This document shows positions 1 through 23,278 of a stretch of 64,000 nt of DNA, in pieces (the stretch's first letter is position 1; each line of letters starts with the position of its first letter). The position numbers and the translations under genes are program-made. Origin of the DNA: an uncultured Lentisphaerota bacterium (GTDB lineage Bacteria; Verrucomicrobiota; Kiritimatiellia; RFP12; UBA1067); contig ONVK01000030.1 of assembly GCA_900321255.1 (NCBI GenBank), positions 848 to 64,847 of the forward strand. Direction: 5' to 3'. The notes beneath the pieces are model-generated. The model was not told where the DNA came from. It did no database searches and saw only the letters and a list, made by a program, of their open reading frames with translations.

Positions 1-456
1 CTCGGGATGGTGGCCGCGATGGTGGGGATAGTAGTACCACACGACCTCGGTGCGGTAGGCAAGACCCCAGACCTTGTCGTCGTCGAACCAGAAGGTGTGG
101 TCGAAGTGGATGTTGGGGTCGAATTCGTTGAACCACTTGCCGTACTGACCGTTGCGCTTGTCGGTGAGGTCAGAGTTGAACCAGAGGCCGACACCGACCG
201 AACCGATGTCCCACGGGAGGTTCAGATTGCCCTCGGCGTACGTCTGCCATGTGGGCTCGGAGTTGAGGAGCGAGCCGTAGAGCTGGTAGCCGGAGTAGAT
301 TCCGGAGGAGCCGAATCCCCAGAAAAGCGGGGCGCCGTCCTCTTTCTCTGCCTCGGCGGGCTGGTTCGCCTGCGCCTGGGAGTCATCGGCCTTGGGCTCG
401 TCGGCAAACGCGGCGAAAGCCGCGCACGCCGCAGCTGCGATCATTAGTTTTTTCAT
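1..456 (-). CDS. hypothetical secreted protein, N-terminal part only (ORF runs off the left edge of the window)
   Basis: Hand translation of the minus strand from ATG 456..454 gives MKKLMIAAAACAAFAAFADEPKADDSQ...FWGFGSSGIYSGYQLYGS... The N-terminus looks like a signal peptide and the body is Gly/Tyr/Trp-rich. It is absent from the ORF track because no stop lies in the window. The listed 7..447 (+) ORF is its antisense shadow. Confidence 0.5.
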   Translation of the reverse strand, partial: MKKLMIAAAACAAFAAFADEPKADDSQAQANQPAEAEKEDGAPLFWGFGSSGIYSGYQLYGSLLNSEPTWQTYAEGNLNLPWDIGSVGVGLWFNSDLTDKRNGQYGKWFNEFDPNIHFDHTFWFDDDKVWGLAYRTEVVWYYYPHHRGHHPE

Positions 457-503
457 GTTTTGATCCTTTTTGTGGTTTGGTTGTGTACGGGGAAACCCAT
501 GTC

Positions 504-2147: not shown

Positions 2148-2178
2148 TGTCGTTTCCTTAGTTAGTTTCGTTGGCAAG

Positions 2179-2949
2179 TCATTTTCCGGGGTACTTGAGG
2201 AGAGTGGCGACGTCGTAGCCCTTGAGAAGCCCGGCCCTCGCGCCAAAGCCCTCGAGCTCGATCGGGAAGATCATCTTGACGACCGTGCCTCCGAGACGCT
2301 CGACAAGCCGCGCCGCGGCGGCAGCCGTGCCGCCCGTCGCGAGCAGGTCGTCTACGATCACGGCCTTCTCCCCGCGGATCACGGCGTCGGCGTGCATGTG
2401 CAGCGTCGCCTTCCCGTATTCGAGGTCGTAGTCCTCCGAGATCGTGCGGCGCGGAAGCTTCCCGGGCTTGCGGATCGGCACAAACGCCTTTCCGAAGCGC
2501 GCGGCGATGGCCGCGCCGAAGATGAAGCCGCGGGATTCCGGCGCCGCGACAAGGTCGAAGCTGACGCCCTCCAGCGCCTCGGCGATCTCGGACAGCGCGA
2601 GGTTGAAGCCCTCGCCGGACTCGAGTATCCCCGTCACGTCGCGGAAAAGCACCCCCGGCTTCGGGAAGTCGGGTATCTCGCGGACGTAGTCGGCGAGACG
2701 CGGACGGCCCGAGAGGAGCTTGTCCATCAGACGCGCGATCTGGAACGACTCCTCGTCCGTCACGACCCCGTCCTGCCTGACGCGCTGCAGGAGCGCTTCG
2801 AGCTCGCAGGCCCCGGGCTCGCCCTTCAGGACGAACGGCCGGATCGTCCTCAGTATCACGGAAGTCTCGCCGAGCGTCACGCGCCCGTCGTACATCACCG
2901 CCGTCCGCAGCGAATCGAGGATCTTGAGCAGTCTGTAGTCGCCGACCAT
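2179..2949 (-). CDS. apt: adenine phosphoribosyltransferase with an extra ~80-aa N-terminal module
   Basis: Apt motifs IPDFPKPGVLFRDVTGI, APESRGFIFGAAIA and VIVDDLLATGGTA (PRPP loop). The N-terminus carries DGRVTLGE...QDGVVTDEES. An internal Met (MDKLLSGRPRLADYVREIPDF) would give a canonical-length Apt, so use of the long form is not proven. Confidence 0.85.
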   Translation of the reverse strand: MVGDYRLLKILDSLRTAVMYDGRVTLGETSVILRTIRPFVLKGEPGACELEALLQRVRQDGVVTDEESFQIARLMDKLLSGRPRLADYVREIPDFPKPGVLFRDVTGILESGEGFNLALSEIAEALEGVSFDLVAAPESRGFIFGAAIAARFGKAFVPIRKPGKLPRRTISEDYDLEYGKATLHMHADAVIRGEKAVIVDDLLATGGTAAAAARLVERLGGTVVKMIFPIELEGFGARAGLLKGYDVATLLKYPGK

Positions 2950-2959
2950 CCCATCCTCC

Positions 2960-4636
2960 CTACATCATTGCGTACTTGGCGATGAAAAGAGCCGTCAGGA
3001 TGTACATGATCCAGTGGATGCGGCTGAACTTGCCGGCAAGCGCGTTTATGACCGTGTACGAGATGACGCCGAACATGATGCCCTCCGAGATCGAATAGGT
3101 GAACGGCATCGCCACGATCGTGAGGAAGGCCGGAACCGCCTCTCCCGCGTCGCGCCAGTCGATGTCGGCGCAGGACGATAGCATCAGATAGCCGACGATG
3201 ATGAGCGCCGGAGCCGTCGCAAAGCCCGGGACCGCGAGGAAGATCGGAGCGAAGAGTATCGCGAGCGCGAAGAGCGCGGCGGAAGTGACTGCGGTGAGGC
3301 CCGTCTTGCCGCCGGCCGCAACGCCGGACGCAGACTCGACATATGTCGTCGTCGTGGAAGTGCCGAAGACGGCTCCCACAGATGTCGCGATGGCGTCGGC
3401 GCAGAGCGCCCCCGAAATGCGCGGGAGCTTGCCCTCCTTCGTGAGGAAGCCACCCTTCATCGAGACGCCGATGAGCGTGCCGAGCGTGTCGAAGAGGTCC
3501 ACGAAGAAGAACGCGAACATCACGACGAAGAAGTCGAGCGACTTGGCGAGCGCCCAGCCGGAACCGACGACCTCGCCCTTCACGGTGTGCGTCCAGTGCT
3601 CGGGCGAGAAGAGCGCGCCGATGGTCGAGCCGAACTCCCTGAACGCGCCGGCGATGTCGCTGACCGCGAAGCTCGGATAGGTCGAGAAGAACTTCGCCTC
3701 GGCGTTCGGCACGTAGAGCCCCGTCGCCTCGGCGACCATGCCGAGGACCCAAGTCGCGAAGATGCCGAGCAGAATGGCGCCCTTGAACCCCTTCACGAGC
3801 ATGAAGCCCGTCAGGACCGTGCCGACGAGCGCGAGAATCGCCGTCACGCCCTGCGTATGGAAACTCCCGGCATCCCTGAAGCTGACGAGCGAAACGAGCG
3901 TCGCGTCGCTGTTCACGATCACCTTCGCCGTCTGCAGCGCGATAAAGCATATGAAAAGGCCTATTCCGGCCGCCACCGCGCGCTTGAGCGTGATCGGTAT
4001 CGAGTTGAATATGCTTTCCCGAACGGGCGTCAGCGAAAGCGCGAGGAATACAAGGCCCTCCACGAACACCGCGAGAAGAGCAAACTGCCAGCTGTAGCCC
4101 ATGCCGAGCACGACGCCGAACGTGAGGAACGCGTTGAGTCCCATGCCCGGAGCGAGGACGAACGGATAGTTCGACATGAACGCCATGAGGAGCGTTCCGA
4201 CGACAGCCGCCACGGCCGTCGCCATGAAGACGCCGCCTCGCGGAATGCCGGCGACGGACAGGATGTTGGGGTTGACGGCGAGGATGTACGCCATCGTCAT
4301 GAACGTCGTGATGCCGGCCGCGACCTCGACCTTGACCGTCGTCCTGTTTCTCTTGAGCTTGAAGACCCTGCCGAGGAAGGTCGTCTCGGGTTCTTCGCTC
4401 TCGGCCTCGCGCGTAAGCCACTTGAGGTGGGCGCCGATGCGCACCGACTCCTCTGGCGTCACGACGCCGTCTTCAAGGACGTCCTCGAGCGCCTTCACGA
4501 ACTCGGCCATCTCCGCGCTCTTCTCGGCGCGCTCCTTGGCGTAGGCGAGGAGGATTACCGCCTCGGCGCGGTCTACCTTGCCGTCTTCGAGAATCGTCTT
4601 CTCGAGTTTGCGTATCGATTCCTTGATGTCGTTCAT
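2960..4636 (-). CDS. NCS2 AzgA/PurP-type adenine/guanine/hypoxanthine permease with an extra ~95-aa N-terminal module
   Basis: AzgA-family motifs AAGITTFMTMAYILAVNPNIL and TSTTTTYVESASGV, plus many TM helices. The N-terminus carries EDGKVDRAE...EDGVVTPEES. There is no alternative start codon between the module and the transporter core. Confidence 0.85.
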   Translation of the reverse strand: MNDIKESIRKLEKTILEDGKVDRAEAVILLAYAKERAEKSAEMAEFVKALEDVLEDGVVTPEESVRIGAHLKWLTREAESEEPETTFLGRVFKLKRNRTTVKVEVAAGITTFMTMAYILAVNPNILSVAGIPRGGVFMATAVAAVVGTLLMAFMSNYPFVLAPGMGLNAFLTFGVVLGMGYSWQFALLAVFVEGLVFLALSLTPVRESIFNSIPITLKRAVAAGIGLFICFIALQTAKVIVNSDATLVSLVSFRDAGSFHTQGVTAILALVGTVLTGFMLVKGFKGAILLGIFATWVLGMVAEATGLYVPNAEAKFFSTYPSFAVSDIAGAFREFGSTIGALFSPEHWTHTVKGEVVGSGWALAKSLDFFVVMFAFFFVDLFDTLGTLIGVSMKGGFLTKEGKLPRISGALCADAIATSVGAVFGTSTTTTYVESASGVAAGGKTGLTAVTSAALFALAILFAPIFLAVPGFATAPALIIVGYLMLSSCADIDWRDAGEAVPAFLTIVAMPFTYSISEGIMFGVISYTVINALAGKFSRIHWIMYILTALFIAKYAMM

Positions 4637-4665
4637 TTCCTGTCCTTTCGATCCGGCGGCAGACG

Positions 4666-4959
4666 CTAGATGATGTTGAGTATGTCGGAAAAGCCCGTTA
4701 TGTCGAACACTTCCTTGACGGAGGGCTGGACGCCTGCGATCTGGAGCGTTCCGCCCTTCGCCATCATCGTCTTGTGGGCGGTGAGCATGAGCCTAAGCCC
4801 CGCCGAGCTCATGTACGGCACATCCGCAAGATCGATGACGACTTTCGTCGCGTCGCCGAACTTGAGCCCTGCCTCGAGTTCCGGCGCGGTTACGGTATCA
4901 ACGCGTCCGCTGACGGAAATGGTCAGCGTGCTTCCCTCTGTGTTAGTTTTTATCTCCAT
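4666..4959 (-). CDS. STAS-domain anti-sigma-factor antagonist (SpoIIAA/RsbV-like)
   Basis: 97 aa. LTISVSGRVDTVTAPELE...DLADVPYMSSAGLRLML contains the conserved phosphorylatable Ser context (SSAGL). It overlaps the upstream phosphatase/kinase gene by 17 nt. Confidence 0.85.
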   Translation of the reverse strand: MEIKTNTEGSTLTISVSGRVDTVTAPELEAGLKFGDATKVVIDLADVPYMSSAGLRLMLTAHKTMMAKGGTLQIAGVQPSVKEVFDITGFSDILNII

Positions 4960-6976
4960 ATTCTTTTCCCATTGTAAGTATGTTCCTGTCGTTGTTCCGC
5001 CTGTAGGTGACAGGCGACATCGTCTTCTTGACGATCAAGATTCCAAGCCCGCCGACCTCGCGGTCATCGGCGCAGAGCGTCGTGTCGGGGTCGCGGTGCG
5101 CAAGCGGATCGAACGGCTTGCCGTTGTCCGTTATGACGAGGCGCACGCCGTCCGGATGGCGGGTTCGCTCCACCGTAAGCGTCCAGTCCGTCGCGCCAGA
5201 ATAGCGCACGATGTTCGCGAATATCTCGTCCGCCGCGACCATCATGATGTTCGAGCAGTCGTCCGGCACGCCCTCAAGCGCCTTCGCGAGGTCGGCGGAC
5301 GCCTTCGAGAGGTCTTCCATCGTCGGCCTGTACTCGCCGGTGAACGTCGCGGGCTCGCCGCGGTAGCGCATGACGAGCTGCGTGCAGTCGTCCGCCTGCT
5401 CCGCGCCGGCGGCATGGCGGCGAACGTCCTCTATCACGGCCGACAGAAGTTCGCCGCGCCTCCCGGAGCAGCCTGACACGGTCTTGAGGAGCTGGTCGTC
5501 TCCGTATAGCTCTCCAGCCGCGTTGTGCTGCTCGACGATCCCGTCGGTGTAGAGGTATATCGCGTCGCCCGGCTCAAGCTGCAGCTCCTGCACGCGGTAG
5601 CGCACGCCCGCCATCGCGCCGAGAACGAGCGAGGGCCTGGACCTGAGGTATTCGACTTTTCCGCCGAGTCTGACGATCGGAGGATTGTGCCCTGCGTTCA
5701 CATACGACACGTGTCCCGTGCGGATGTTCAGCTCGCCGGCCCAGGCAGTCACGAAAGTGTTGGAGGTATTCCCCTCGCAAAGGGCATCGTTCGCCTCCTC
5801 GATGACCTGTTCGATCGGTTTCCCCGTCTGCGCGGCGCTCTTTATCTGCGCCTTCGCCCTCATCATGAACATCGCGGCCGGGACGCCCTTCCCGCTCACG
5901 TCCGCAACGAGGAACAGCACGCGGTCAGGCCCGGTGAAGTAGAAGTCGTAGAAGTCTCCGCCGACTTCCCTCGCCGTGTCCATCGACGCCCAGATGTCGA
6001 AACTCGTCTCGTCGGGGAACGGGGGAAACACGTTGGGGATCGCCGCCAGCTGTATGTCCGTCGCCATCTTGAGCTCCTTCGCGGTCTGGAGCTTGATCTG
6101 GTTGCGGACGAAGGATGAGATCACGAATCCGACGAGAAGCGCGACGAACACGAGCGCCGCGCCGTTCAACACGGCGGTCGCGCCTACAAGGACGTCGCGC
6201 TGCACAGCTGCGGAGTCCTTGGGGATCATGATGTACGTCGGAAAGCCCTCGATTTCCTTGCGCTTCCAGTAGAAAGAGCTGTCGGGATCCTCCCAGTGCG
6301 CACCCTCGCGGTTCGGCTCCTCGTAGTCGGAGAGAATTAGCCCGGACATCGTAGTCACCACTATTCCGCCATTCCCGCCGACGCGCCAGTTGCGGAAGAG
6401 GTCCATGAGCGAGGAGCGCGACAGGCCGCGGAGCGACTCGCCGTCGCAGCCGATTTCCACGAAGCCGCCTGTCGACGGCATCCAGACCCCGATGAACTTG
6501 CGCCACGCGCCGTTCGCGGTGTTCGAGCGGTACGGCTGGCAGTATTCGGTGTCCGGTCCGGTGACGAGGCACATCATGTCCTCGGCCTGGCCGCCCGCCG
6601 TCTTGAAGTTGAAGGCCGGCCGGTCGGCGGAGGCGAGGTAGTCGGTCACCGACGAGGCAACGATGTCTCCATTCGTGTCGGCGACGCTGATCTCCGTGAC
6701 GTGAAGCTCCCTGGCGAGCGCCTGAAGCGACGCAGTGTCCACGGGATAGCCGTCCTCCTCTATCCGCTCGCGAACAGCCATGCACTGCAGGACAAGCCTT
6801 TCCTCTACGCAGTCCGACATCTCGTCCTCGACGTTCTCGAACGTGCGGTCGATCAGCTTGTACGCGTCGCGCTCCGAGAGCCGCGAGTGGAGGAACCACG
6901 TGAACGCCATCGACAGCAGGAACGCCGCGAAGACGCTCAGCACAAGCTTAAGGTTGAGGCTGCGGCGCTGCGTCAT
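4943..6976 (-). CDS. membrane sensor: periplasmic Cache-like domain + PP2C/SpoIIE phosphatase + C-terminal RsbW/SpoIIAB-like kinase (HATPase) domain
   Basis: N-terminal TM, a periplasmic domain and a second TM. SpoIIE motifs EVGGDFYDF, LVADVSGKGVPAAMFM, TDGIVE. C-terminal HATPase motifs ADEIFANIVRYS, VRLVITDNGKPFDP, VGGLGILIVKK. Confidence 0.85.
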   Translation of the reverse strand: MTQRRSLNLKLVLSVFAAFLLSMAFTWFLHSRLSERDAYKLIDRTFENVEDEMSDCVEERLVLQCMAVRERIEEDGYPVDTASLQALARELHVTEISVADTNGDIVASSVTDYLASADRPAFNFKTAGGQAEDMMCLVTGPDTEYCQPYRSNTANGAWRKFIGVWMPSTGGFVEIGCDGESLRGLSRSSLMDLFRNWRVGGNGGIVVTTMSGLILSDYEEPNREGAHWEDPDSSFYWKRKEIEGFPTYIMIPKDSAAVQRDVLVGATAVLNGAALVFVALLVGFVISSFVRNQIKLQTAKELKMATDIQLAAIPNVFPPFPDETSFDIWASMDTAREVGGDFYDFYFTGPDRVLFLVADVSGKGVPAAMFMMRAKAQIKSAAQTGKPIEQVIEEANDALCEGNTSNTFVTAWAGELNIRTGHVSYVNAGHNPPIVRLGGKVEYLRSRPSLVLGAMAGVRYRVQELQLEPGDAIYLYTDGIVEQHNAAGELYGDDQLLKTVSGCSGRRGELLSAVIEDVRRHAAGAEQADDCTQLVMRYRGEPATFTGEYRPTMEDLSKASADLAKALEGVPDDCSNIMMVAADEIFANIVRYSGATDWTLTVERTRHPDGVRLVITDNGKPFDPLAHRDPDTTLCADDREVGGLGILIVKKTMSPVTYRRNNDRNILTMGKEYGDKN

Positions 6977-7686
6977 TTCGCCCCTCCTTCCGCTATGACG
7001 GCATTGGCCGCCGCAAGCACGTCGGGGCGACGCTTGTCAACCGCGACCCCGTAGAACTCGCGCGTCTGCAGAGGCGAGACAGCGAGCTTCCCTCCGGACG
7101 CCTCGGCAAGTGTCGTCAGCTGTACGCCGTCGAAGAGCACCGCGTCGACCTCGTCCCTCCTGAGCGCAGCGATGGCGTCCTGGATGCGGATATAGCGCTT
7201 GGGGTCGCATCCGTGCAGGCAGAGGTAGACGTCGTGAGCAGAATCGGACTCGATGCCGATGCGGATGGCGTTGAGCTGCGACATGCGGGGCTTCTTTCCG
7301 TCCGTCCTGTACAGGAAGCGCGCACCGCCCTCCCCATAGGGTTCGGAGAAGTCGATGTCGCGGCGCCGCGCCTCGGTCATCGTGATGGTCGCGATGGAGA
7401 AATCGGCGGTGCCGGCCTTGAGACGCGGCAGGATCTCGATGAAATCGACGCCTTCCATGACCATCTTGCGGCCCATCTTCGCGGCGATCTTCCGCGCGAA
7501 CTCGACGTCCGTACCGACGATTTCGCCGGCCTCGTTCCTGTAGCAGCACGGCGGCTCGGTCGGGTTCGCGAGAAAGAGAAGCGGACGCGACATGTCGGTG
7601 ACGCGCGGATCGACCGTTTCCCGCCTGTCCTTGTCGGAACAGCCGGCGAACACGGCGAGCGCGAGCAGCATGCATAGTCGTTTCAT
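6973..7686 (-). CDS. lipoprotein, family-3 solute-binding protein (amino-acid-binding type)
   Basis: Lipobox LAVFAGC. SBP_bac_3-like IVGTDVEFARKIAAKMG...DFSIATITMTEARR..DFSEPY. It has 4-nt overlaps with both neighbours. Confidence 0.8.
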   Translation of the reverse strand: MKRLCMLLALAVFAGCSDKDRRETVDPRVTDMSRPLLFLANPTEPPCCYRNEAGEIVGTDVEFARKIAAKMGRKMVMEGVDFIEILPRLKAGTADFSIATITMTEARRRDIDFSEPYGEGGARFLYRTDGKKPRMSQLNAIRIGIESDSAHDVYLCLHGCDPKRYIRIQDAIAALRRDEVDAVLFDGVQLTTLAEASGGKLAVSPLQTREFYGVAVDKRRPDVLAAANAVIAEGGAK

Positions 7687-9380
7687 AGCTTGAACATGTT
7701 CCTGTTGAACCCTGTTGTCGTCATGTTTCGCCGCGCGGGGATCGCCACCATCAGGTTCGCGACGAGATACGAGCGCAGCGACGAAGCCGTCGAGTCGGCG
7801 TCGGTTATGTCAAAGAGCTTCCCGTCGTCGCGGATCACCACCGTGATGCCGTTCGACCAGTCGACCGATATCTCCGCATGCGTCCGCCTGCCGGCGTTTC
7901 TGTCCTTTACGAGCATCAGCGTCTCCTCGATGAGCAGCGAGACGAGCCCGGACTTGCGGTCGTCCATCCCCCTGCGCGTGCCGAGGAACCTGCCGACTGT
8001 GGCGGACGCGTCGCAGATCGCCTTCGTGTCAAGCACCAGGTCGTAGACGCGCGAAGCGCGAATCCGCGCACGGTCGAGGAAAAGCGGGAACGCCCTGCGG
8101 CCACACCTGAAGGCGACATACACCGCGACGAGGCCGATGGCGGCGTAGGGACTTGCCGCGAGCGCGGACCACACGCCGCACTCGCCGAAGAGCCAGCCGG
8201 CCGCCGGAGCGAGCGCGACCGGCAGCACGAAAGTCGCGAGCGCCGTCACGCCGACGGCAAGCCCCTCTCGGACGCGGAAGGTGTAGTAGGAGTTGAGCAG
8301 CATCACAAACGCCGTGCCGACGAGCCCGAGCGAGACGATGCGCACCGCGGTGCGGGCGGCCTCGGCGAGCGACGGATCGGTGATCCCGACCATGGACACG
8401 ACGAGCTGCGGGAACGCGACGGCGAGAAGCGTAAGCACCAGCCCCTCGGCCGCGGAGACGCGCGCCGCGAGGCCCATTATGCGGCGCGTGAGGCGGTCGT
8501 TGCCCTCGCCGATGTAGACGCTCGCGAGCGGCTGCGCCGCGGTCGCGACCCCGTCGAAGGCCTCGCTCACCCCGAGTATCACGAGAACCGCGGCAAGCAC
8601 CGGAAGCCTGCCTTCGCCGAAACGCGAAATGATGTAGAGGTTGAGCATCAGCGTGAGACCCGCCTGGCAGAGGCGTATGCTCGCGTCGCCGAGCGCGCAC
8701 GCGCAGATTCGCCCGGTGTCCGCAAGCGAGAAATGCCGCACGAACGCCATCGAGTTCTCCTCTCGGCGAAGGTGCATAAGGAGGACGCACAGCGCCATGA
8801 GGTGCCCGACCGTCGTGCCGATGGCGCACCCTGTGTAGCCGTAGCGCATCGTGAGCGGAATGGATAGCGCGCAGTTGCCGAGAAGCTGCGCGATGTAGGC
8901 GCCGGCGCATACACGCCCGTCGCCGTCGGCATAGCCCATGGACGAAAAGTAGAACGACAGCGGCTCGAGAACCGCGCACGGGAGAAACCACACCCAGTAC
9001 TCTCGAGCGCCGGCCAGCACCGCGCCGGATACGCCGAACGCCGCGGTCGCGGCGTTGCGCGAAAGCGCGAGCGCGCCCATGAGGAGAAGCCCGAACCCGA
9101 GCGCAGACCAGAGGCCCTGGGTCAGCAGTTCGCTCGCGCGCCTGCGGTCGAAGCGCCCCATCTCCATCGCGTAGAGGACGCTCGTCCCTGTTCCGACCAG
9201 CAGCGCGACGAAAGACACGACGTTGAACATCGGCTGCATCAGGTTTATGACGGAAAGCCCTTCCTCGCCTATGATCTGCCCGCAGATGACGCTGTCGGAA
9301 AGCCCCATCAGGTACTCCGCCGCCATCGCGAAAGTCGCGGTGGGAAGGAATCTGGCGAACTTGTTGGCGGCAAAGGTCAT
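7683..9380 (-). CDS. MATE-family transporter fused to a C-terminal degenerate RsbW-like (HATPase_c-type) domain
   Basis: About 440 aa with ~12 TM helices and a MATE-like N-terminus (AAEYLMGLSDSVICGQIIGEEGLSVINL). The C-terminal ~120 aa (LVSLLIEETLMLVK...GITVVIRDDGKLFDIT) parallels the kinase domain of the 4943..6976 product, but the G-box is replaced (ASSLRSYLVAN). Confidence 0.7.
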   Translation of the reverse strand: MTFAANKFARFLPTATFAMAAEYLMGLSDSVICGQIIGEEGLSVINLMQPMFNVVSFVALLVGTGTSVLYAMEMGRFDRRRASELLTQGLWSALGFGLLLMGALALSRNAATAAFGVSGAVLAGAREYWVWFLPCAVLEPLSFYFSSMGYADGDGRVCAGAYIAQLLGNCALSIPLTMRYGYTGCAIGTTVGHLMALCVLLMHLRREENSMAFVRHFSLADTGRICACALGDASIRLCQAGLTLMLNLYIISRFGEGRLPVLAAVLVILGVSEAFDGVATAAQPLASVYIGEGNDRLTRRIMGLAARVSAAEGLVLTLLAVAFPQLVVSMVGITDPSLAEAARTAVRIVSLGLVGTAFVMLLNSYYTFRVREGLAVGVTALATFVLPVALAPAAGWLFGECGVWSALAASPYAAIGLVAVYVAFRCGRRAFPLFLDRARIRASRVYDLVLDTKAICDASATVGRFLGTRRGMDDRKSGLVSLLIEETLMLVKDRNAGRRTHAEISVDWSNGITVVIRDDGKLFDITDADSTASSLRSYLVANLMVAIPARRNMTTTGFNRNMFKL

Positions 9381-9395
9381 AGTTTCCTGTTTGGG

Positions 9396-9404
9396 ATTAT
9401 ACCA
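9396..9404 (-). promoter_or_regulatory. extended -10 box TGGTATAAT upstream of the MATE gene
   Basis: The minus strand reads TTTGGTATAAT, followed by 15 nt containing AGGAAA and then ATG 9380. Confidence 0.45.
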
Positions 9405-9432
9405 AATAGCGCCTCTTTAGTGTGGAATTTCT

Positions 9433-11091
9433 TCATCCGTTGTATCGTACGATCAGCTGCGTGCAGTCGTCCGCCTGCTCCACAAGCCCGCCGTACGCGA
9501 CGACAGCGTGGAAGACGGCGCGCAGCAGAGGCGACGAACCGCCTTCGACAGCCGCGACGCCGTTCGAGAGCATCGACTCAAGCGAGAAGCGCAGCCTCTC
9601 CTCGCCGAACAGGTCTCCGCGCTCGTCGGGTTGCTCTGTGATTCCGTCCGTGTAGAGGTAGATCGCCTCGCCGGGACGGAGCGTCAGCTCGTGCGACTTG
9701 TACGTGATCCCCTCCATCGCGCCGAGCATCAGGCCCGACCTGTCGCGGACGAACTCCGGCGCGGAGCCGGACGAAGTCCGGATCGGCGGGTTGTGCCCCG
9801 CGTTCACGAAGGTGACGACGCCAGTCGTCAGGTTCAGCTCGCCAAGCCACGCCGTGACGAACATGTTCGCGTCGTTGTCGCGGCTCAGCGCGTCGTTCGC
9901 CCTCTCGGCGACCTCGGCGAGCGGAAGCCCCGTCTGGGCGATCCCCTTGATCGTGGTCTTCGCGCGCATCATGTACAGCGCCGCGGGAACGCCCTTCCCG
10001 CTGACGTCCGCAATCATGAACATGAACCTGTCGGAGGTGATGAAGTAGAAGTCGTAGAAGTCGCCGCCTATGTCGCGCGCCGCCTGCATCGTCGCCACGA
10101 TGTCCATCCTCGTCTCGTCGGGGAAAGGCGGGAAGACGCGCGGAATCGCGCTCTCCTGGATGTTCGTGGCCATCTCCATCTCGTGCTTGCGCTGGGCGGC
10201 GAGCTGGTCGCGCACGTAGTGCGCGATCACGAGCCCCACGAGGATCGCCGCGAGTATCAGGGCCATTCCGTTCAGGAACGCGGAGGTCGCCACAAGGACC
10301 CGCCTCTCGACGACCGCCGTCCTCTTCGGAATCACGACGTATACGGGGAAGCCCTCGAACATGCGCTTCTCCCAGTAGTTATCCTCGCCGGGGTCGCGCC
10401 ACTGCCCGCCCTCCTGCCCCGCAACTGGATGGGAGATGATCGTCCCGTTGTCGGTCGTTATGAAGATGCCACCCTCGTCTCCGCTCACGTGCCAGCCGTG
10501 CGTGAGGCCGGTGAGGGCGGAGCGCGCAAGGTTGCGGAGGGCCTTCTCCCGTGCGCCGACGAGCACAAATCCGCCTTCGGGCATCCAGACCCCGACGTAC
10601 TTGATCTTCTCGCCGCGGAGCGTGCTCGGAAGAGGCGGCTGCGCAAGCTCGAACCCTTCCGTCAGAAGCGACGCAAACTCGTGCGCCTGGCCCTCGGCCG
10701 TGTTGAAGTTCAGCGCCCCGACCTCTTCGCGTCGCGCACTGTGGGAGAGATTTCCGTCCGCATCCGCTATGCATATCTCGTCCACCCCGAGTTCGTCCGC
10801 GAGCGCGCGGAGGCGCCTGCTCGACTCGTCAGGGTCGTTCCACCACGGCTGCCCCTGCATCTCGTAGACTTTGTCGCGCACCACCATCGCCTGGCGGAAC
10901 ATGCGCGCGTCCACGCGCTCGCGTATATCCACCGCCACGTCGCTGAACACATTGTCGATGAGGTGCTTCGTGTCGCGCCATGTAAGCTGCTCGTGAAGCA
11001 TCCACGTAAGCACGAGCGAGGCGACGAACGCAAGCGCAACGGCGCCGACGAGACGCCGCGCGAGCTTGCGCTGTGCAGTTCCCATCACCAT
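9433..11091 (-). CDS. membrane sensor: periplasmic Cache-like domain + PP2C/SpoIIE phosphatase (paralogue of 4943..6976 without the kinase domain)
   Basis: DIGGDFYDF, MIADVSGKGVPAALYM, TDGITE. The periplasmic domain aligns with its paralogue (YVGVWMPEGGFVLVG vs FIGVWMPSTGGFVEIG). An alternative ATG lies at 11085. Confidence 0.85.
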   Translation of the reverse strand: MVMGTAQRKLARRLVGAVALAFVASLVLTWMLHEQLTWRDTKHLIDNVFSDVAVDIRERVDARMFRQAMVVRDKVYEMQGQPWWNDPDESSRRLRALADELGVDEICIADADGNLSHSARREEVGALNFNTAEGQAHEFASLLTEGFELAQPPLPSTLRGEKIKYVGVWMPEGGFVLVGAREKALRNLARSALTGLTHGWHVSGDEGGIFITTDNGTIISHPVAGQEGGQWRDPGEDNYWEKRMFEGFPVYVVIPKRTAVVERRVLVATSAFLNGMALILAAILVGLVIAHYVRDQLAAQRKHEMEMATNIQESAIPRVFPPFPDETRMDIVATMQAARDIGGDFYDFYFITSDRFMFMIADVSGKGVPAALYMMRAKTTIKGIAQTGLPLAEVAERANDALSRDNDANMFVTAWLGELNLTTGVVTFVNAGHNPPIRTSSGSAPEFVRDRSGLMLGAMEGITYKSHELTLRPGEAIYLYTDGITEQPDERGDLFGEERLRFSLESMLSNGVAAVEGGSSPLLRAVFHAVVAYGGLVEQADDCTQLIVRYNG

Positions 11092-11831
11092 CTGCGCCGC
11101 CTCCTCTTGCCGGCCGTTATCACCATGTCGAGCGCCTTCTTGAGCCGCGTGTCGCCCTTGCGCACGGCTATGCCGAAGTTCTCGCGCGTCTCGAGGCGGG
11201 ACGCGGCGAATTCGCCGTTCGAGTTCTCCGCGTCTATGCGAACCGCGCAGCTGTCGAAGAACATCGCGTCGAGCCGCTTCGCCTTGAGGTCATCCATCGC
11301 ATCGACGTAGGAGCCGTAGCGGACGGGATCGAGCCCATGCGAGGTCAGGTAGAAGTCGTAGGTCGACGCATCCATCGTGCCGATGCGCATCTTCTCGGCG
11401 CGGATCATCGTCGGCATCTCCTCTCCCGCGCGGTAGAGGAACATCCCTCCCTCCGTCGCGTAGGGAACCGTGAAGTCCACGGTCTGCAGCCTGCCCTCAG
11501 TGATCGTTATGCCGGACGCGGCCATATCGGCCTCCCCTGCGCTTACCATGGTCAGCAGGTTCGGGAACTTCTCCTTGCGTATCTCGAGCTTGCACCCAAG
11601 CTTTGCCGCCGCCGCGCGCGCGATGTCTATTTCCAGACCGACTATCTCGCCCGTCTCGTCGTCGCAGTAGGAATACGGGCGGGTGTCAGTCGTGGTGACG
11701 AGCAAAAGCACGTTGTTCGTGCGGGCGGGAGGAGGAGGCGGCGCGTCAGCGTCGCGCCCGCTGCATCCGGCGGAAAGCATCGCGGCGAGAACGAGCGCCG
11801 CAGCCGACAGTGTATAGACTCCTCCCCTCAT
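11085..11831 (-). CDS. lipoprotein, family-3 solute-binding protein (second copy)
   Basis: Lipobox MLSAGCSG. IVGLEIDIARAAAAKLG...DMAASGITITEGR..DFTVPY. The stop overlaps the start of the downstream PP2C sensor. Confidence 0.8.
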   Translation of the reverse strand: MRGGVYTLSAAALVLAAMLSAGCSGRDADAPPPPPARTNNVLLLVTTTDTRPYSYCDDETGEIVGLEIDIARAAAAKLGCKLEIRKEKFPNLLTMVSAGEADMAASGITITEGRLQTVDFTVPYATEGGMFLYRAGEEMPTMIRAEKMRIGTMDASTYDFYLTSHGLDPVRYGSYVDAMDDLKAKRLDAMFFDSCAVRIDAENSNGEFAASRLETRENFGIAVRKGDTRLKKALDMVITAGKRRRRRW

Positions 11832-11853
11832 CTACCAGTATCGCCTGAAGCGG

Positions 11854-12474
11854 TCAGAGGGTGCCGAAAATGCGGTCGCCGGCATCGCCAAGACCAGGAA
11901 CGATGTAGAAATGGCTGTTCAGGCGCTCGTCTTTGGCCGCGGTGAACACAGGGACGTCGGGATGCTCCTTCTCGACCTTCGCAATGCCCTCCGGCGCGGC
12001 AATGAGGTTGAGGAAGACGATTCGCCTGTAGCCGAGCTTCTTGAGCTGGGCGAACGCATCGCACGCGCTCCCGCCCGTCGCGAGCATCGGGTCGATCACG
12101 ATCGCGAGCTCGTCGTTCTTCGCCGGCGGAACTTTCGCGTAGTACGGAATCGGCTCGGCCGTCGCCTCGTTGCGCTGCATGCCGAGAACGCCGACCTTCG
12201 CGTACGGAAGGACGTGCAGCATCGCGTCGAGCATGCCCATTCCGGCGCGGAGAATCGGGACGATCACAATGGAGTCCTCGATCTTCACGCCCGTCGTCTT
12301 CGCGACAGGGGTCGTGACCGGGATCTCGACGGTCCGCAGGTCCTTGAGACTCTCGATTGCAAGAAATTCCGTTATCTCGTTTACGAGCTCGCGAAACTGC
12401 TTCGGCTTTGTGTTGATGTCGCGCATAAGCGTGACGCGGTGCTTTACAAGTGGATGGTTCAGGACTGTATGCAT
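11854..12474 (-). CDS. upp: uracil phosphoribosyltransferase
   Basis: 206 aa. ILRAGMGM, VIDPMLATGGS, YIVPGLGDAGDRIFGT. Confidence 0.92.
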   Translation of the reverse strand: MHTVLNHPLVKHRVTLMRDINTKPKQFRELVNEITEFLAIESLKDLRTVEIPVTTPVAKTTGVKIEDSIVIVPILRAGMGMLDAMLHVLPYAKVGVLGMQRNEATAEPIPYYAKVPPAKNDELAIVIDPMLATGGSACDAFAQLKKLGYRRIVFLNLIAAPEGIAKVEKEHPDVPVFTAAKDERLNSHFYIVPGLGDAGDRIFGTL

Positions 12475-12480
12475 AAGAGA

Positions 12481-12606
12481 GTTTAAAGTTTAAAGTTCAA
12501 AGTTCAAAGTTTAAAGTTGGAAGTTGGGAGTTGAGAATTGAAAGTTGAGAGTTGAGAGTTTGATGTTTGGTCTTTAAAGTTTAGGTTTGAAGTTCGAAGA
12601 TTTTGA
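12481..12606. repeat. tandem heptanucleotide array, about 18 units (GTTTAAA/GTTCAAA/GTTGAGA...)
   Basis: Phase-7 periodicity was read directly from 12481 to 12606. The array lies between the pilD stop and the upp start, and is AT-rich in an otherwise GC-rich window. Confidence 0.9.
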
Positions 12607-12619
12607 GGCTTACGGTGCT

Positions 12620-12627
12620 ATTATACA
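12620..12627 (-). promoter_or_regulatory. possible -10 box (TGTATAAT) for upp, upstream of the heptamer array
   Basis: The minus strand reads ATGTATAAT directly after the pilD stop codon. If used, the heptamer array would be the ~140-nt upp leader. Confidence 0.3.
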
Positions 12628-13536
12628 TTAAGGAACGACGAGACGCAAATACCAATCCACAAGCTGCGGACCGAAGAACATCCACGAAAGACACCCTATG
12701 CAGATGTACGGCCCATACGGTATTGGCGTAAAACCACCAAGTTTTGTCTTGGAAAGAAGAATTAACGACACACCGACGACGCTACCGACGACCGAGGAGA
12801 GGATGAGAGTCACAAGAACCGCAATCGGTCCGAAGAGCGCACCGACCGCCCCCATAAGGAATACGTCGCCCATTCCCATGGCCTCGCGCTTGAACGCCTT
12901 CGAGCCCACCCAGCGCACAAACCAGAGGAGTCCGAAGCCAAAGACAAGGCCACTTATGGAGTACGCGAGCGGGAAGTACATCCTCAAGTCGGAGAAGTCG
13001 AACGCGAAGTTTCGAGTGCTTGCGCTGACGAACGTCCAGAACAGGACGCCGAGCACCATTCCTCCGACCGTCGTGAAGTCGGGGAGAAGCTGGTGGTCGA
13101 AGTCGATAAACGAACCGGCAATCATCAACGATATCCAAATCCACCAGACAAGCAGGATGATGATTCCAGCAATGTAGGTGACCTGCCCGAACGGAGCGAC
13201 GACCGGCTTCCCGTCGCCGCCGAACAGATGCAAGAACACCGCAAGGAACAGCAGACCGCCCAGGAGCTCCACGAAGATATACCGCGGCGAAATCGGCGCA
13301 CGGCAGTTGGCGCACTTGCCCCTGAGCGCAAGCCACGAGAGGATCGGAATGTTCTGGTACCACCTGATCGGCGAGTTGCACTTCGGGCAGTGCGACGGCG
13401 GGGAGACGATCGACTCGCCCCTTGGCGCGCGCCAGATGACGACGTTGAGGAACGACGCAATGCACGCCCCCAGCCAAAAGCTGAAAAACGCCAATATCGG
13501 CATAAGTTCTTTTAGGATGTTGGCGTGCTGATTCAT
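12628..13536 (-). CDS. pilD: prepilin peptidase / N-methyltransferase (peptidase A24)
   Basis: CPKCNSPIRWYQNIPILSW...GKCANC zinc-finger-like motif, GMGDVFLMGAVG active-site region, polytopic membrane protein. Confidence 0.88.
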   Translation of the reverse strand: MNQHANILKELMPILAFFSFWLGACIASFLNVVIWRAPRGESIVSPPSHCPKCNSPIRWYQNIPILSWLALRGKCANCRAPISPRYIFVELLGGLLFLAVFLHLFGGDGKPVVAPFGQVTYIAGIIILLVWWIWISLMIAGSFIDFDHQLLPDFTTVGGMVLGVLFWTFVSASTRNFAFDFSDLRMYFPLAYSISGLVFGFGLLWFVRWVGSKAFKREAMGMGDVFLMGAVGALFGPIAVLVTLILSSVVGSVVGVSLILLSKTKLGGFTPIPYGPYICIGCLSWMFFGPQLVDWYLRLVVP

Positions 13537-13537
13537 G

Positions 13538-14524
13538 TCACTCGCTCTTCAGTTCGCGGCCCATCATCGACTCGACGGCCTTCCGGGCGTCGAAGTCCTC
13601 GTAGCAAAGCGCGTAGACGAGATCGCAGATGGGCATCTCGACGCCAAGCTTCGCGGCAAGGTCGTGGACAACCTTCGAGTTCCAGACGCCTTCGGCCACC
13701 ATCTGCATCGAGCCGAGAATGTCCTTTATCTTCTCGCCCTTCCCAAGCCGCTCGCCGACGGAATGGTTTCGCGAGTGGACCGATGTGCAAGTGACGATGA
13801 GATCGCCTATCCCGGCGAGCCCGGAAAGCGTCTCGGGCTTACCGCCGTAGGCGAGCACGAAGCGCTTCATCTCAGCGAGACCGCGCGTGATGAGCGCGGC
13901 CCTCGTGTTGTCGCCGAAGCCCATGCCGTCGGAGCAGCCGACGGCAATCGCGATGACGTTCTTGACGGCGCCGCCTATCTCTACGCCGACCGGATCGGGC
14001 GAAGTGTAGACGCGGAACTTGGGGCCAGACCAGACGCGCTGGACCTTCTTCGCCTTCTCCTCGTCCTCGCACGCGGCGACGATTGTAGTCGGAATCCCTC
14101 GGCTCACCTCCTCGGCGTGAGTCGGCCCTGCGAGCGCGACTACGCTCTTTATCCCGAGTATCTCCTTCGCGAGCTCCGTCATGCGCTTGTTTGACGATTC
14201 GCAAAGCCCCTTCGTGAGCGAGACGACGAGCTGGTCGTCGGTTATGAGACCCCTGAAGCCCTCCATCACCGACGCAAAGAACTTGCTCGGCGGCGCGAGA
14301 ACGACGATTTCGGCGCCCTTCACCGCCTCTTCGCGGTCGGAAGTAAGCTTCAGCGCGTCGGGCAGAACGACGCCCTTCAGGAACTTCTCGTTTCTCCTGG
14401 TGCGGCGCTGCTCCTCTATGTAGTCCGGGAACGCGCCCCATACCGTCACGTCATGCCCATAGCCAACGAGAAGCAGCGCATTCGCCGTTCCCCATCCACC
14501 ATCGCCAATCACCGCAATTTTCAT
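13538..14524 (-). CDS. gpsA: NAD(P)H-dependent glycerol-3-phosphate dehydrogenase
   Basis: MKIAVIGDGGWGTA..., GPTHAEEV, KNVIAIAVG, consistent with the GpsA family. Confidence 0.9.
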   Translation of the reverse strand: MKIAVIGDGGWGTANALLLVGYGHDVTVWGAFPDYIEEQRRTRRNEKFLKGVVLPDALKLTSDREEAVKGAEIVVLAPPSKFFASVMEGFRGLITDDQLVVSLTKGLCESSNKRMTELAKEILGIKSVVALAGPTHAEEVSRGIPTTIVAACEDEEKAKKVQRVWSGPKFRVYTSPDPVGVEIGGAVKNVIAIAVGCSDGMGFGDNTRAALITRGLAEMKRFVLAYGGKPETLSGLAGIGDLIVTCTSVHSRNHSVGERLGKGEKIKDILGSMQMVAEGVWNSKVVHDLAAKLGVEMPICDLVYALCYEDFDARKAVESMMGRELKSE

Positions 14525-18921: not shown

Positions 18922-18930
18922 TCACCCCCA

Positions 18931-20736: not shown

Positions 20737-20754
20737 AAGACCAATGCCAAAAAT

Positions 20755-22770: not shown

Positions 22771-22774
22771 ACAT

Positions 22775-22813: not shown

Positions 22814-22840
22814 CGTTATCCATTTACGAATCAATGCACA

Positions 22841-23215: not shown

Positions 23216-23278
23216 GGTTGTGTTCCTTTTTTTGTTTTGTTTATTTGCGCCGACACCATGCCGACGCAAAAAATTGTA

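Follow-up and report, generated by a model that had tools for sequence, protein, structure and literature searches.

A six-gene array within a nucleobase-salvage gene string

The window analysed here is a stretch of 64 kb from a rumen Kiritimatiellae bacterium. Its open reading frames, taken together with profile searches, reveal six tightly packed genes on the minus strand at positions 4666-11831. In order, these encode a solute-binding lipoprotein (SBP1, 11085-11831, 248 aa; SBP_bac_3, E 9.6e-28), a sensor phosphatase (PP2C-A, 9433-11091, 552 aa; SpoIIE, E 1.3e-47, residues 353-550), a MATE transporter with a C-terminal tail (7683-9380, 565 aa; MatE, E 1.5e-19), a second lipoprotein (SBP2, 6973-7686, 237 aa; SBP_bac_3, E 9.5e-24), a second sensor phosphatase fused to a kinase domain (PP2C-B, 4943-6976; SpoIIE, E 4.4e-51; HATPase_c_2, E 1.2e-17) and a STAS protein (4666-4959, 97 aa; STAS, E 1.4e-17). 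From SBP1 to STAS the junctions measure -7, +52, -4, -4 and -17 bp, negative values being overlaps. A first-pass annotation had described this array, and its reading frames are exactly as given there, with the domains found by Pfam and NCBIfam. Roughly 25 species-level genomes have this arrangement, the overlapping junctions included, a recurrence far beyond what chance would give.

The array is enclosed by a string of nucleobase-salvage genes, also on the minus strand, with gaps of 10-29 bp. The uracil phosphoribosyltransferase gene upp (11854-12474; UPRTase, E 5.8e-69) lies 22 bp upstream of SBP1 and probably heads the transcription unit. At the other end, 29 bp separate the end of the STAS gene from the start of a gene for an NCS2 nucleobase permease extended by 95 aa at the N terminus (2960-4636; Xan_ur_permease, E 1e-31), and these two genes are probably co-transcribed. 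A phosphoribosyltransferase gene (2179-2949; Pribosyltran, E 8e-12) and a second NCS2 permease gene (504-2246; Xan_ur_permease, E 2e-84) form the downstream end of the string, at 504-2949. The salvage genes are probably co-transcribed with the array and are further candidate outputs of the switch proposed below; because the array is embedded in this string, the earlier view of the MATE transporter as the only non-signalling protein does not hold.

Sensors, phosphatases and a putative STAS phospho-switch

SBP1 has the lipobox LSAGC and a motif of the amino-acid-binding type, GITITEGR, and SBP2 has the lipobox FAGC, all read in translation. The array has no gene for an ABC importer permease or ATPase, and SBP1 and SBP2 are presumed to be the ligand-binding partners of the PP2C-A and PP2C-B sensors respectively; the pairing of a solute-binding protein with a sensor phosphatase is kept in 28 loci. 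PP2C-A consists of a transmembrane segment, a periplasmic dCache-like domain, a second transmembrane segment and a SpoIIE-family PP2C domain, and lacks a kinase domain. It is 43% identical to the sensor region of PP2C-B (residues 1-300, 6077-6976, minus strand), in which TM1 and TM2 flank a periplasmic double-PDC (dCache) domain. The sole Pfam support for Cache is a dCache_1 match in PP2C-A that falls under the cut-off (E 0.009). The AlphaFold2 model of PP2C-B residues 1-300 (pLDDT 74) has 39 Foldseek matches in the PDB at E<=1e-3, nearly all of them to double-PDC/dCache sensors and one to the LuxQ periplasmic domain from the complex with LuxP (2hj9_C), which bears out the Cache assignment made at first pass. 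Both phosphatases retain the metal-binding motifs GDFYD, DVSGKG, TDG and DD, those of PP2C-B lying in a SpoIIE-family domain at residues 350-538 (5363-5929, minus strand).

The RsbW-type serine kinase domain of PP2C-B (residues 553-671, 4964-5320, minus strand) has the N-box DEIFAN, the G1 motif DNGKPFD and the G2 motif GGLG, and these motifs mark it as the one kinase in the module that is catalytically intact. Its fusion to a phosphatase had been called unusual, which is not the case: PP2C and RsbW-type kinase share one polypeptide in HsbR (PA3346) and SypE (PMC8256260) and in Rv1364c of M. tuberculosis (PMC10950880), and both Pfam domains are present in 120/120 homologues among the matches listed. 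As such, the fusion of kinase and phosphatase is a known architecture.

The STAS protein matches TIGR00377 (anti-sigma-factor antagonist) with E 2e-21. Its serine, in the motif YMSSAGLR, aligns with S58 of SpoIIAA and S56 of RsbV, and the motif is conserved in all 38 STAS proteins neighbouring MATE-tail loci; judged from this sequence, the single-domain protein is the putative phospho-switch of the module. Profile searches find no further copies of the STAS, kinase, PP2C or tail domains in the 64 kb.

A degenerate RsbW-like tail on the MATE transporter

The transporter domain (residues 1-425, 8106-9380, minus strand) matches MatE in two stretches and an NCBIfam MATE efflux transporter family with E 1e-23, and a profile aligns residues 16-417 to the structures of PfMATE and DinF-BH (E 4e-16). 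Conserved charged residues of the core, including D152 and E292, are kept. Behind it lies a cytoplasmic tail of 139 aa (residues 427-565, 7683-8102, minus strand) that resembles a divergent GHKL domain of the RsbW/SpoIIAB kind. The tail has no match in Pfam even at E<=10 and none among PDB sequences, and in BLASTP it matches the neighbouring kinase domain only with E 0.97.

Three lines of evidence support an RsbW-like fold for the tail, as the first-pass annotation had suggested. In the first, the AlphaFold2 model of the tail (pLDDT 77.5) finds UsfX, RsbW or SpoIIAB in ten of its 12 top Foldseek matches and LvrC chains in the other two; probabilities for the former are 0.98-1.0, with modest E values of 2e-3 to 4e-2 and TM scores of 0.5-0.67 (for example 8ih8_C, E 2.3e-3; 1tid_A, TM 0.61), and beyond the GHKL matches the probability is below 0.2. 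In the second, an HMM built from 29 true kinase domains matches 66 tails (best E 3.9e-5), and hhalign aligns the tail family colinearly with the kinase domains (E 8e-5). The tail of the window itself does not match this HMM at E<=0.01, so that homology rests on the tail family as a whole. In the third, six of 84 diverse tail relatives give sub-threshold matches to HATPase_c_2, and no other cytoplasmic domain family recurs among the 84.

The N-box column that would hold the Mg-ATP asparagine has Asn in none of the 84 relatives, and Ser and Arg replace the G2 GxG glycines in 71 and 68 of them respectively. As both this asparagine and the glycines of the ATP lid are missing, the tail is probably a pseudokinase, although their loss is no proof that nucleotide binding is lost. 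By contrast with these sites, E485, D518, G520 and N559/R560 are kept in 80-84 of the 84, and E485 and G520 are invariant across relatives of 25-51% identity, which points to purifying selection on a non-catalytic function of the tail.

Gene neighbourhoods of the MATE-tail family

The tail family comprises 514 clusters at 50% identity. In full-length matches the tail occupies about residues 430-565 of proteins of 560-590 aa and always follows a MATE domain; MatE is present in 84/84 scanned tail proteins and the MATE-tail fusion is obligate. At least five lineages of gut anaerobes have this design, and no description of a MATE transporter with a pseudo-anti-sigma tail was found in the literature searched.

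Neighbourhoods were counted in 49 species-level loci whose flanks each extend for at least 3 kb. A gene for a STAS protein, PP2C or kinase lies within 6 kb of the MATE-tail gene in 37 of the 49 (STAS in 26, PP2C in 28, kinase in 19), and the remaining 12 have no partner-switching gene within that distance. Related Kiritimatiellae supply much of this co-occurrence, and the counts are not fully independent. The linkage takes at least five gene orders in several lineages (Kiritimatiellia, Bacillota and Fibrobacter); STAS, kinase and MATE-tail follow one another in both Bacillota and Kiritimatiellia, and ten loci contain the minimal pair of MATE-tail and STAS without PP2C or kinase. About ten Fibrobacter loci have a membrane PP2C directly before or after the MATE-tail gene, and a search of them out to 10 kb, with a cut-off as loose as E<=5, finds no STAS, so STAS is not a universal neighbour.

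In one lineage, MATE, tail and STAS are fused in a single protein of 678 aa (P0156; STAS, E 7e-11), in which the serine motif is intact. Its in-frame junction recurs in a second protein, P0390, which is 87% identical to it and carries substitutions in the linker.

The genomic setting of the MATE-tail gene varies with lineage: in Kiritimatiellae it lies within a nucleobase-salvage operon, with upp adjoining it in 17/49 loci, and in Fibrobacter, Synergistales and Anaerovoracaceae it lies beside a single-module NRPS.

A transporter as the proposed output

We propose, with moderate confidence based on sequence and structural models, that the output of this partner-switching module is a transporter and not a sigma factor. 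SBP1 and SBP2 would report two periplasmic solutes to their own dCache sensors, much as LuxP does to LuxQ, and the state of each sensor would set the activity of its PP2C domain and possibly that of the fused kinase as well. The kinase domain would add a phosphate to the STAS serine and the phosphatases would take it off. In one of its two states, most likely the unphosphorylated one by analogy with RsbV and SpoIIAA, the STAS protein would dock on the pseudokinase tail and switch MATE transport on or off post-translationally. The two RsbW-like domains would in this way share the work, one phosphorylating STAS and the other binding it and signalling to the transporter. We infer the contact between tail and STAS from homology, gene neighbourhood and the one fused lineage.

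A rather unlikely alternative is that the tail, or the kinase domain of PP2C-B, is a membrane-bound anti-sigma factor that sequesters a sigma-70-family protein encoded elsewhere; STAS would free sigma in the canonical way and MATE would be only a membrane anchor or flux sensor. The structural model of the tail indeed matches best with UsfX, the anti-SigF factor of M. tuberculosis (8ih8_C, 8jzt), the outputs of partner switches can be unlinked, and the sigma factor under PA3346/PA3347 is still unidentified (PMC8256260). However, our search for a sigma factor, which covered the 64-kb window and the neighbourhoods of the loci, detected no sigma-70-type gene in the array or among the Pfam-scanned open reading frames of the window (about half of the called genes), and no recurrent sigma-like family among 367 unclassified open reading frames neighbouring 76 loci. 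The absence of a sigma factor from the array agrees with the first-pass annotation, as does the position of rpoN at 29738-31156, 18 kb away. Moreover, the tail is always attached to a 12-TM transporter, never alone or on another anchor, and the transporter core retains its conserved charged residues.

It is also unlikely that the tail is itself a phospho-substrate or direct partner of PP2C, the kinase and phosphatases acting on its Ser/Thr residues (T526, S534 and T555 are candidate sites) and STAS doing no more than compete with or regulate the kinase. In the 49 loci PP2C neighbours are no rarer than STAS neighbours, 77 and 71 of the 84 relatives keep T526 and S534 respectively, and the Fibrobacter loci, which pair a membrane PP2C with MATE-tail and lack STAS, raise the possibility that PP2C acts on the tail. 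Against this, STAS proteins are the targets of known RsbW-type kinases and SpoIIE-family phosphatases, the ten minimal pairs have STAS and neither PP2C nor kinase, and the MATE-tail-STAS fusion points to contact between the tail and STAS.

Regulation of the NCS2 permease by the free STAS protein, with or without MATE as a second output, seems to us quite improbable. SulP/SLC26 and NCS2 proteins are of the same fold. The idea draws on analogy to the STAS domains fused to SulP/SLC26 transporters (PMC8256260), and on position: NCS2 starts 29 bp past STAS here and adjoins STAS or MATE-tail in 24/49 loci, including some with the order MATE-tail, STAS, NCS2, and stand-alone homologues of its unusual 95-aa extension lie directly upstream of MATE-tail genes in eight loci. 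But this linkage is confined to Kiritimatiellae and may be inherited synteny; elsewhere MATE-tail has partner-switching neighbours and no NCS2, and in the permease no domain is recognisable as a dock for STAS, RsbW-like or otherwise.

Finally, a lack of any functional coupling, with MATE placed in a signalling operon by inherited order and the tail a structural remnant, could account for the 12 loci without partner-switching genes and for the many loci from one class, but is highly improbable given the strong purifying selection on the tail, the linkage in different gene orders in Kiritimatiellia, Bacillota and Fibrobacter and the existence of the fusion with STAS.

For MATE as a non-sigma target, the degenerate tail, the linkage in 37/49 loci and the MATE-tail-STAS fusion together give strong backing at the level of sequence. 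Of the earlier interpretation, the non-sigma output with MATE as its probable target is supported, and the two side claims, on the fusion and on the sole non-signalling protein, fall. The switch of this rumen Kiritimatiellae bacterium is complete and of the type that ordinarily releases a sigma factor, and a membrane transporter is its likely target.

Comparison with known systems

The module shares with RsbU-RsbV-RsbW and SpoIIE-SpoIIAA-SpoIIAB of Bacillus a SpoIIE-family PP2C, a HATPase_c_2 serine kinase and a single-domain STAS protein with its serine in the same loop, and in each an RsbW-fold domain is the known or proposed STAS-binding partner. Unlike those modules it has no sigma factor in the array, it divides the role of RsbW between an active kinase on a phosphatase and a degenerate copy on MATE, and its phosphatases span the membrane, carry dCache sensor domains and are each paired with a solute-binding lipoprotein.

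As in HsbR-HsbA (PA3347) of Pseudomonas aeruginosa, SypE-SypA of Vibrio fischeri and Rv1364c, a fused pair of opposing activities would act on one STAS protein or domain; the target of SypA is still unknown (PMC8256260, PMC10950880). The input to those proteins is a cytoplasmic receiver or PAS domain, whereas here it is a periplasmic dCache domain with a solute-binding protein, and those systems lack a transporter bearing a pseudo-anti-sigma tail. Non-sigma outputs are known from SiaABCD, in which SiaC activates the diguanylate cyclase SiaD, and from the HenR/All4160 module of Anabaena (PMC8457831; bioRxiv 10.64898/2026.04.08.717354). In these too a phospho-switch protein is under the control of PP2C and kinase, and it regulates an enzyme directly rather than transcription, but the cyclase or glycosyltransferase targeted has no RsbW-like docking domain, whereas here a recognisable, degenerate anti-sigma fold is carried on the proposed target.

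In structure the tail comes closest to mycobacterial UsfX, and the RsbW paralogues of M. smegmatis have separate roles, RsbW1 in binding, RsbW2 as kinase and RsbW3 as antagonist (PMC10950880); the mycobacterial proteins are soluble and control SigF, while in the present module a transporter carries the copy of the binding type. The SulP/SLC26 family likewise couples a STAS fold to a membrane transporter, although its STAS domain belongs to the transporter itself, a GHKL-like docking domain plays no part, and no serine phosphorylation cycle of RsbW kinase and SpoIIE PP2C is described in the review PMC8256260. On the input side the closest parallel is LuxP-LuxQ, in which a periplasmic solute-binding protein signals to a double-PDC membrane sensor; LuxQ has a histidine kinase as its output domain, in place of which the present sensors have a PP2C, alone or with a serine kinase domain.

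Results

The six genes of the array (4666–11831, all on the minus strand of the window, which has a GC content of about 63%) are separated by junctions of −7, +52, −4, −4 and −17 bp, negative values being overlaps. The first encodes a solute-binding lipoprotein, SBP1 (11085–11831, 248 aa; SBP_bac_3, E 1e-27; lipobox LSAGC in the translation), and the second a membrane sensor phosphatase, PP2C-A (9433–11091, 552 aa; SpoIIE over the whole Pfam model, E 1e-47). These are followed by a MATE protein (7683–9380, 565 aa), in which Pfam finds MatE repeats in two stretches (E 1.5e-19) and whose residues 427–565 form the C-terminal tail, and by a second lipoprotein, SBP2 (6973–7686, 237 aa; SBP_bac_3, E 1e-23; lipobox FAGC in the translation). 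The last two genes encode PP2C-B (4943–6976, 677 aa; SpoIIE over the whole Pfam model, E 4e-51), a sensor phosphatase with a fused RsbW-type kinase domain at residues 553–671 (HATPase_c_2, E 1.2e-17), and a STAS protein (4666–4959, 97 aa; STAS, E 1.4e-17; TIGR00377, anti-sigma-factor antagonist, E 2e-21). Open reading frames, Pfam and NCBIfam matches and translated motifs together agree with the six-gene inventory of the first-pass annotation. A contig of the rumen MAG RUG12088 encodes proteins that are 100% identical over the MATE tail region and 96–100% identical for the adjacent genes; the next relatives, labelled Kiritimatiellae, are 86% identical.

In translation, the PP2C metal-binding motifs GDFYD, DVSGKG, TDG and DD are intact in both phosphatases, and the kinase domain of PP2C-B has its N (DEIFAN), G1 (DNGKPFD) and G2 (GGLG) boxes. 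The second serine of the STAS loop YMSSAGLR aligns with S58 of SpoIIAA and S56 of RsbV, and the serine loop is kept in all 38 STAS proteins that neighbour MATE-tail genes. With a single-domain STAS protein carrying this serine, a HATPase_c_2 kinase and two SpoIIE-family phosphatases, the array has all that a partner switch should show at the level of sequence save the defining output, as a sigma factor is absent. This absence had been pointed out before and stands: there is no sigma-70-type gene in the array, and rpoN (29738–31156) is the sole sigma gene found in the window. Searches of the window with profiles made from the array proteins find no further copies of the STAS, RsbW-type kinase, PP2C or tail sequences. 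The rpoN gene is itself surrounded by several type IV pilus or type II secretion-like genes, namely those for a prepilin peptidase (12628–13536), a sigma-54-dependent response regulator (23411–24805), a secretin (27738–29744) and a T2SSE/MshEN ATPase (31156–32844).

The window tail has no match in Pfam even at E ≤ 10 and does not reach the gathering score of HATPase_c_2, a 32-sequence tail profile has no match at E ≤ 10 among all PDB sequences, and BLASTP of the tail against the neighbouring kinase domain of PP2C-B gives E 0.97. The relationship to RsbW is exposed only by structure comparison and profile-to-profile steps. When the AF2 model of the tail (pLDDT 77.5, pTM 0.74) is searched with Foldseek, 10 of the top 12 matches are UsfX (the mycobacterial anti-SigF factor), RsbW or SpoIIAB, with probabilities of 0.98–1.0, TM scores of 0.49–0.67 and modest E-values, and the other two places are taken by chains of LvrC, a response regulator of Leptospira; the next entry is a histidine-kinase ATPase domain, after which the probabilities collapse. 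An HMM of 29 genuine kinase domains from related loci matches 66 tails among 5941 ORFs (best E 3.9e-5), and hhalign of the tail alignment against the kinase alignment gives a colinear match (E 8e-5). Sub-threshold HATPase_c_2 matches at E ≤ 0.01 are seen in 6 of 84 diverse full-length relatives (best 0.002), among which no other cytoplasmic domain family recurs. The description of the tail as RsbW-like, made earlier by inspection of the sequence, is thus upheld by Foldseek, the kinase-domain HMM and hhalign, with no match in Pfam, and the modelled tail has the Bergerat-type alpha/beta (GHKL) fold of anti-sigma kinases.

Profile alignment pairs the catalytic DE of the kinases with an invariant EE in the tail, and the G1 box DxGxxFD with RDDGxIFD, of which the DxG is kept (D518 in 80 and G520 in all of the 84 relatives). 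The column aligned to the N-box Asn, a ligand of Mg-ATP, holds Asn in none of the 84, and the kinase G2 sequence GGLG is replaced by S-S-L-R (Ser in 71/84, Arg in 68/84), the GxG ATP lid being missing. The tail is conserved about as well as the transporter core (mean column identity 66%, against 67% over the whole MATE protein), and several tail motifs are invariant. Because of the fold match, the missing Asn and G2 features and this conservation, we consider the tail an RsbW-fold domain that has very probably lost kinase activity; strong selection with lost catalysis is the signature of a binding module. The near-invariant N495 was considered as a shifted N-box Asn and rejected, because in the model it caps the C-terminal end of the helix at tail residues 48–68, and it is 23 residues from the G1 Asp where 29–31 are expected.

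Both small lipoproteins have the SBP_bac_3 fold by Pfam and NCBIfam. There is no ABC importer permease or ATPase gene in the array, and the nearest ABC genes (14549–16809) are those of an ABC-2 exporter only; we infer an orphan, sensory role for SBP1 and SBP2. In Pfam only PP2C-A has a dCache_1 match, and this lies below the gathering score (E 0.009, 16 bits against a cut-off of 45). Residues 1–300 of PP2C-B, aligned with the PP2C-A paralogue and ten homologues, are modelled by AF2 (pLDDT 74) as a helix of 70 residues followed by two alpha/beta modules and then the second TM helix, the layout of a dCache domain, in which a long N-terminal helix and then two PDC modules lie between two TM helices. 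Foldseek against the PDB gives 39 matches at E ≤ 1e-3, nearly all to double-PDC/dCache sensor domains, including HK1S-Z16 (1.2e-7), DctB, KinD, Mlp24, Tlp3 and McpU, and also the periplasmic domain of LuxQ, crystallised with its binding protein LuxP. The TM scores are low (0.3–0.4), and the match, which justifies the earlier label of Cache for these periplasmic domains, is one of topology. RsbR, the sole PDB-sequence match of the sensor profile (E 0.32), was discarded as spurious.

The MATE core, of the MOP superfamily, matches TIGR00797 at E 2e-22 and 79 bits, under the curated cut-off of that model, and the structures of PfMATE and DinF-BH align to residues 16–417 (E 4e-16). The conserved D152 and E292 would be compatible with ion-coupled export of a substrate.

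Searched against 1.84 billion representatives, the tail profile recovers 514 clusters (50% identity), and the family is found mainly in anaerobes of the rumen and gut. Taking one genome per species, we examined 78 loci with MATE-tail genes (designated by L-numbers), annotated by profiles seeded from the window proteins; most are from rumen and gut Kiritimatiellae, with others from Fibrobacter, Bacillota, Synergistales and Treponema. The first-pass annotation had proposed comparing neighbourhoods for co-occurrence of the MATE gene with the module, and this is seen, in differing gene orders: at 37 of the 49 loci that have 3 kb or more of sequence on either side, many of them phylogenetically related, a partner-switching gene lies within 6 kb of MATE-tail (STAS at 26, PP2C at 28, kinase at 19), and about a quarter of the 49 have no such neighbours. 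The commonest order is MATE-tail, SBP, dCache-PP2C-kinase, STAS, and the window has this order with an extra SBP and PP2C pair upstream. A MATE-tail and STAS pair alone is found at ten loci. Other arrangements are STAS, stand-alone kinase, MATE-tail (L050, L077 and, in Bacillota, L071, where the kinase matches HATPase_c_2 at E 5e-23), STAS, MATE-tail, PP2C-kinase (L043), MATE-tail, STAS, SBP, PP2C-kinase (L054), and, in Fibrobacter, MATE-tail, PP2C. In one lineage MATE, tail and STAS are joined in P0156, one protein of 678 aa (STAS, E 7e-11). An assembly artefact is ruled out by a second sequence, P0390, which shares 87% identity and the in-frame junction with P0156 and carries substitutions within the linker.

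Some loci depart from these arrangements in their components. In two from Kiritimatiellae (L007:10233–12164 and L025:4334–6337) the dCache-PP2C gene stops before the kinase domain and STAS directly follows it, leaving modules of phosphatase, STAS and MATE-tail in which a linked kinase is absent. In two from Bacillota (L064 and L065) MATE-tail is separated from the pair of PP2C-kinase and STAS by a RelA_SpoT-domain protein of the small alarmone synthetase type (L064:9758–10852) and an HD-like ORF; in place of the dCache domain, the PP2C-kinase begins with several TM helices that give a weak QueT-like match. Two MAGs assigned to Fibrobacter succinogenes (L074, L079) have MATE-tail with an adjacent membrane PP2C.

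Outside Kiritimatiellae the recurrent neighbour of MATE-tail is a single-module NRPS of 960–990 aa with A-T-C domains (AMP-binding, PP-binding, Condensation), found at L067:5736–8618 (minus strand), L059:5844–8717 and L080:10432–13404, and also at L057, L060 and other Fibrobacter loci. This suggests that in these lineages the transporter exports a small NRPS product. At L059 the ORFs for PP2C, NRPS and MATE-tail overlap in that order.

The array has a further context that the first-pass annotation missed. On the same strand, with gaps of 10–29 bp, upp (11854–12474) lies upstream, and an NCS2 permease (2960–4636), a phosphoribosyltransferase (2179–2949) and a second NCS2 permease (504–2246) lie downstream. 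Among Kiritimatiellae, MATE-tail has upp and NCS2 for neighbours also at loci without signalling genes (L003, L010, L013), so the module of signalling genes and MATE lies within a probable nucleobase-salvage operon. Predicted terminators (8, against 9.0 expected in shuffled sequence) and promoters (3, against 2.2) in positions 1–14000 are uninformative on operon structure, and no riboswitch or other RNA family is found in the window with Rfam.

The NCS2 permease adjoining STAS has a 95-aa N-terminal extension (4352–4636, minus strand), without a Pfam match, that carries two repeats, ILEDGKVDRAEA and LEDGVVTPEES. Stand-alone 85-aa homologues (E 1e-14 to 5e-8) are found directly upstream of MATE-tail at eight loci (L018:2317–2571, L021:4731–4982, L022:1230–1538, L043:273–599, L047:4355–4618, L049:8337–8726, L051:8457–8714 and L062:8456–8713), and abut or overlap the MATE-tail genes where checked. 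The extension may be a further regulatory module common to both transporters. Elsewhere in the window, positions 18000–24000 have a GC content of 0.47–0.52 against 0.63 in the remainder and contain two large minus-strand ORFs of low GC3 without Pfam matches (18931–20736, 601 aa; 20755–22782, 675 aa); this region may have been acquired horizontally. A 760-aa protein (46012–48294, minus strand) combines HTH_19 and Cupin_2 with an AMP-binding enzyme that is complete and includes its C-terminal domain, an apparent fusion of a DNA-binding domain to an enzyme resembling acyl-CoA synthetases.

Discussion

Based on sequence, predicted structure and gene neighbourhood, we lean towards a model in which the array is a partner switch with the MATE protein as its output and the STAS protein binding to the tail. 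In this model the orphan SBPs, which lack cognate ABC importer genes, would report periplasmic solutes to the dCache sensors in the manner of LuxP and LuxQ, the solute probably being an amino acid or a derivative because of the ITxT..R motif. The sensors would control how active the phosphatases are and, in PP2C-B, perhaps also how kinase and phosphatase are balanced. The one active kinase domain would phosphorylate the STAS serine, and the two PP2Cs would remove the phosphate. In one of its states, by analogy the unphosphorylated one, STAS would bind the pseudokinase tail and alter MATE activity, and the two RsbW-like domains would divide catalysis and binding between them. Such a division has a precedent in mycobacteria, where RsbW2 phosphorylates, RsbW1 binds SigF and RsbW3 heterodimerises (PMC10950880).

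The strongest of the alternatives, and an improbable one, is sequestration, by the tail or by the kinase domain, of a sigma factor whose gene lies elsewhere in the genome. Two observations speak against it. Fusion of tail and transporter is obligate, as every full-length match is 560–590 aa with the tail C-terminal and all 84 relatives scanned have MatE, and recurrent sigma neighbours are absent: clustering of 367 unclassified ORFs neighbouring 76 loci gives no recurrent sigma-like family. Slightly less probable is that the phosphatase and kinase act on the tail itself, as might be the case in Fibrobacter, where a membrane PP2C abuts MATE-tail and no STAS gene is found within 10 kb even at E ≤ 5; at this threshold no STAS gene is found near the Synergistales MATE-tail genes either. 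That the adjacent NCS2 permease is the output, alone or additionally, has a little less to commend it again. Inherited synteny without function is a very improbable account of the linkage.

A more far-reaching reading, to which we assign an even chance, is that MATE-tail proteins are a previously unrecognised class of signal-gated transporters in which a catalysis-dead RsbW fold serves as cytoplasmic receiver, and a phospho-regulated STAS protein directly opens or closes the exporter according to periplasmic solutes sensed through the SBPs and dCache phosphatases. Partner-switching modules rank with the commonest signalling devices of bacteria, and many 'non-canonical' STAS proteins, SypA among them, still lack a known target. 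The MATE protein is a candidate target, marked by a degenerate STAS-binding anti-sigma fold and in one lineage fused to STAS. Were this confirmed, the architecture would surprise a signalling specialist and give a concrete answer to what orphan STAS proteins act on; it would be the first partner switch with a transporter domain as the 'partner', would show that anti-sigma domains are reusable as receiver domains of effectors, and would offer a template for finding other orphan STAS targets, by seeking degenerate RsbW-like domains on effector proteins. MATE transporters are usually regarded as regulated by transcription, and these would be gated post-translationally by an extracellular signal. 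Because the Fibrobacter MATE-tail gene adjoins a small NRPS gene, the cargo may be a secreted metabolite that matters for the ecology of the gut. Fibrobacter succinogenes is a culturable species and could give an experimental entry point if cultured strains carry MATE-tail too.

Full-text searches found no paper that deals with a fusion of MatE and HATPase_c_2, with partner switches of Kiritimatiellae, with a transporter as a partner-switch output, or with a transporter that has a degenerate anti-sigma domain as apparent receiver. Partner switches with outputs other than a sigma factor are known, SiaC acting on SiaD (PMC8457831) and the HenR/All4160 module of Anabaena (bioRxiv 10.64898/2026.04.08.717354) being examples, and SypA is described as a STAS protein awaiting its target (PMC8256260). 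PP2C-B is a bifunctional PP2C and RsbW-type kinase encoded next to STAS, with PF07228 and PF13581 together in all 120 of the homologues listed. The first-pass annotation considered this fusion of phosphatase and kinase unusual, a view we do not share, as such fusions are already known from HsbR (PA3346) and SypE (PMC8256260) and from Rv1364c (PMC10950880). Those proteins receive their input through a cytoplasmic receiver or PAS domain, whereas PP2C-B has for this purpose a periplasmic dCache domain flanked by two TM helices, and it is only in this periplasmic dCache and SBP input that the fusion here differs from HsbR, SypE and Rv1364c.
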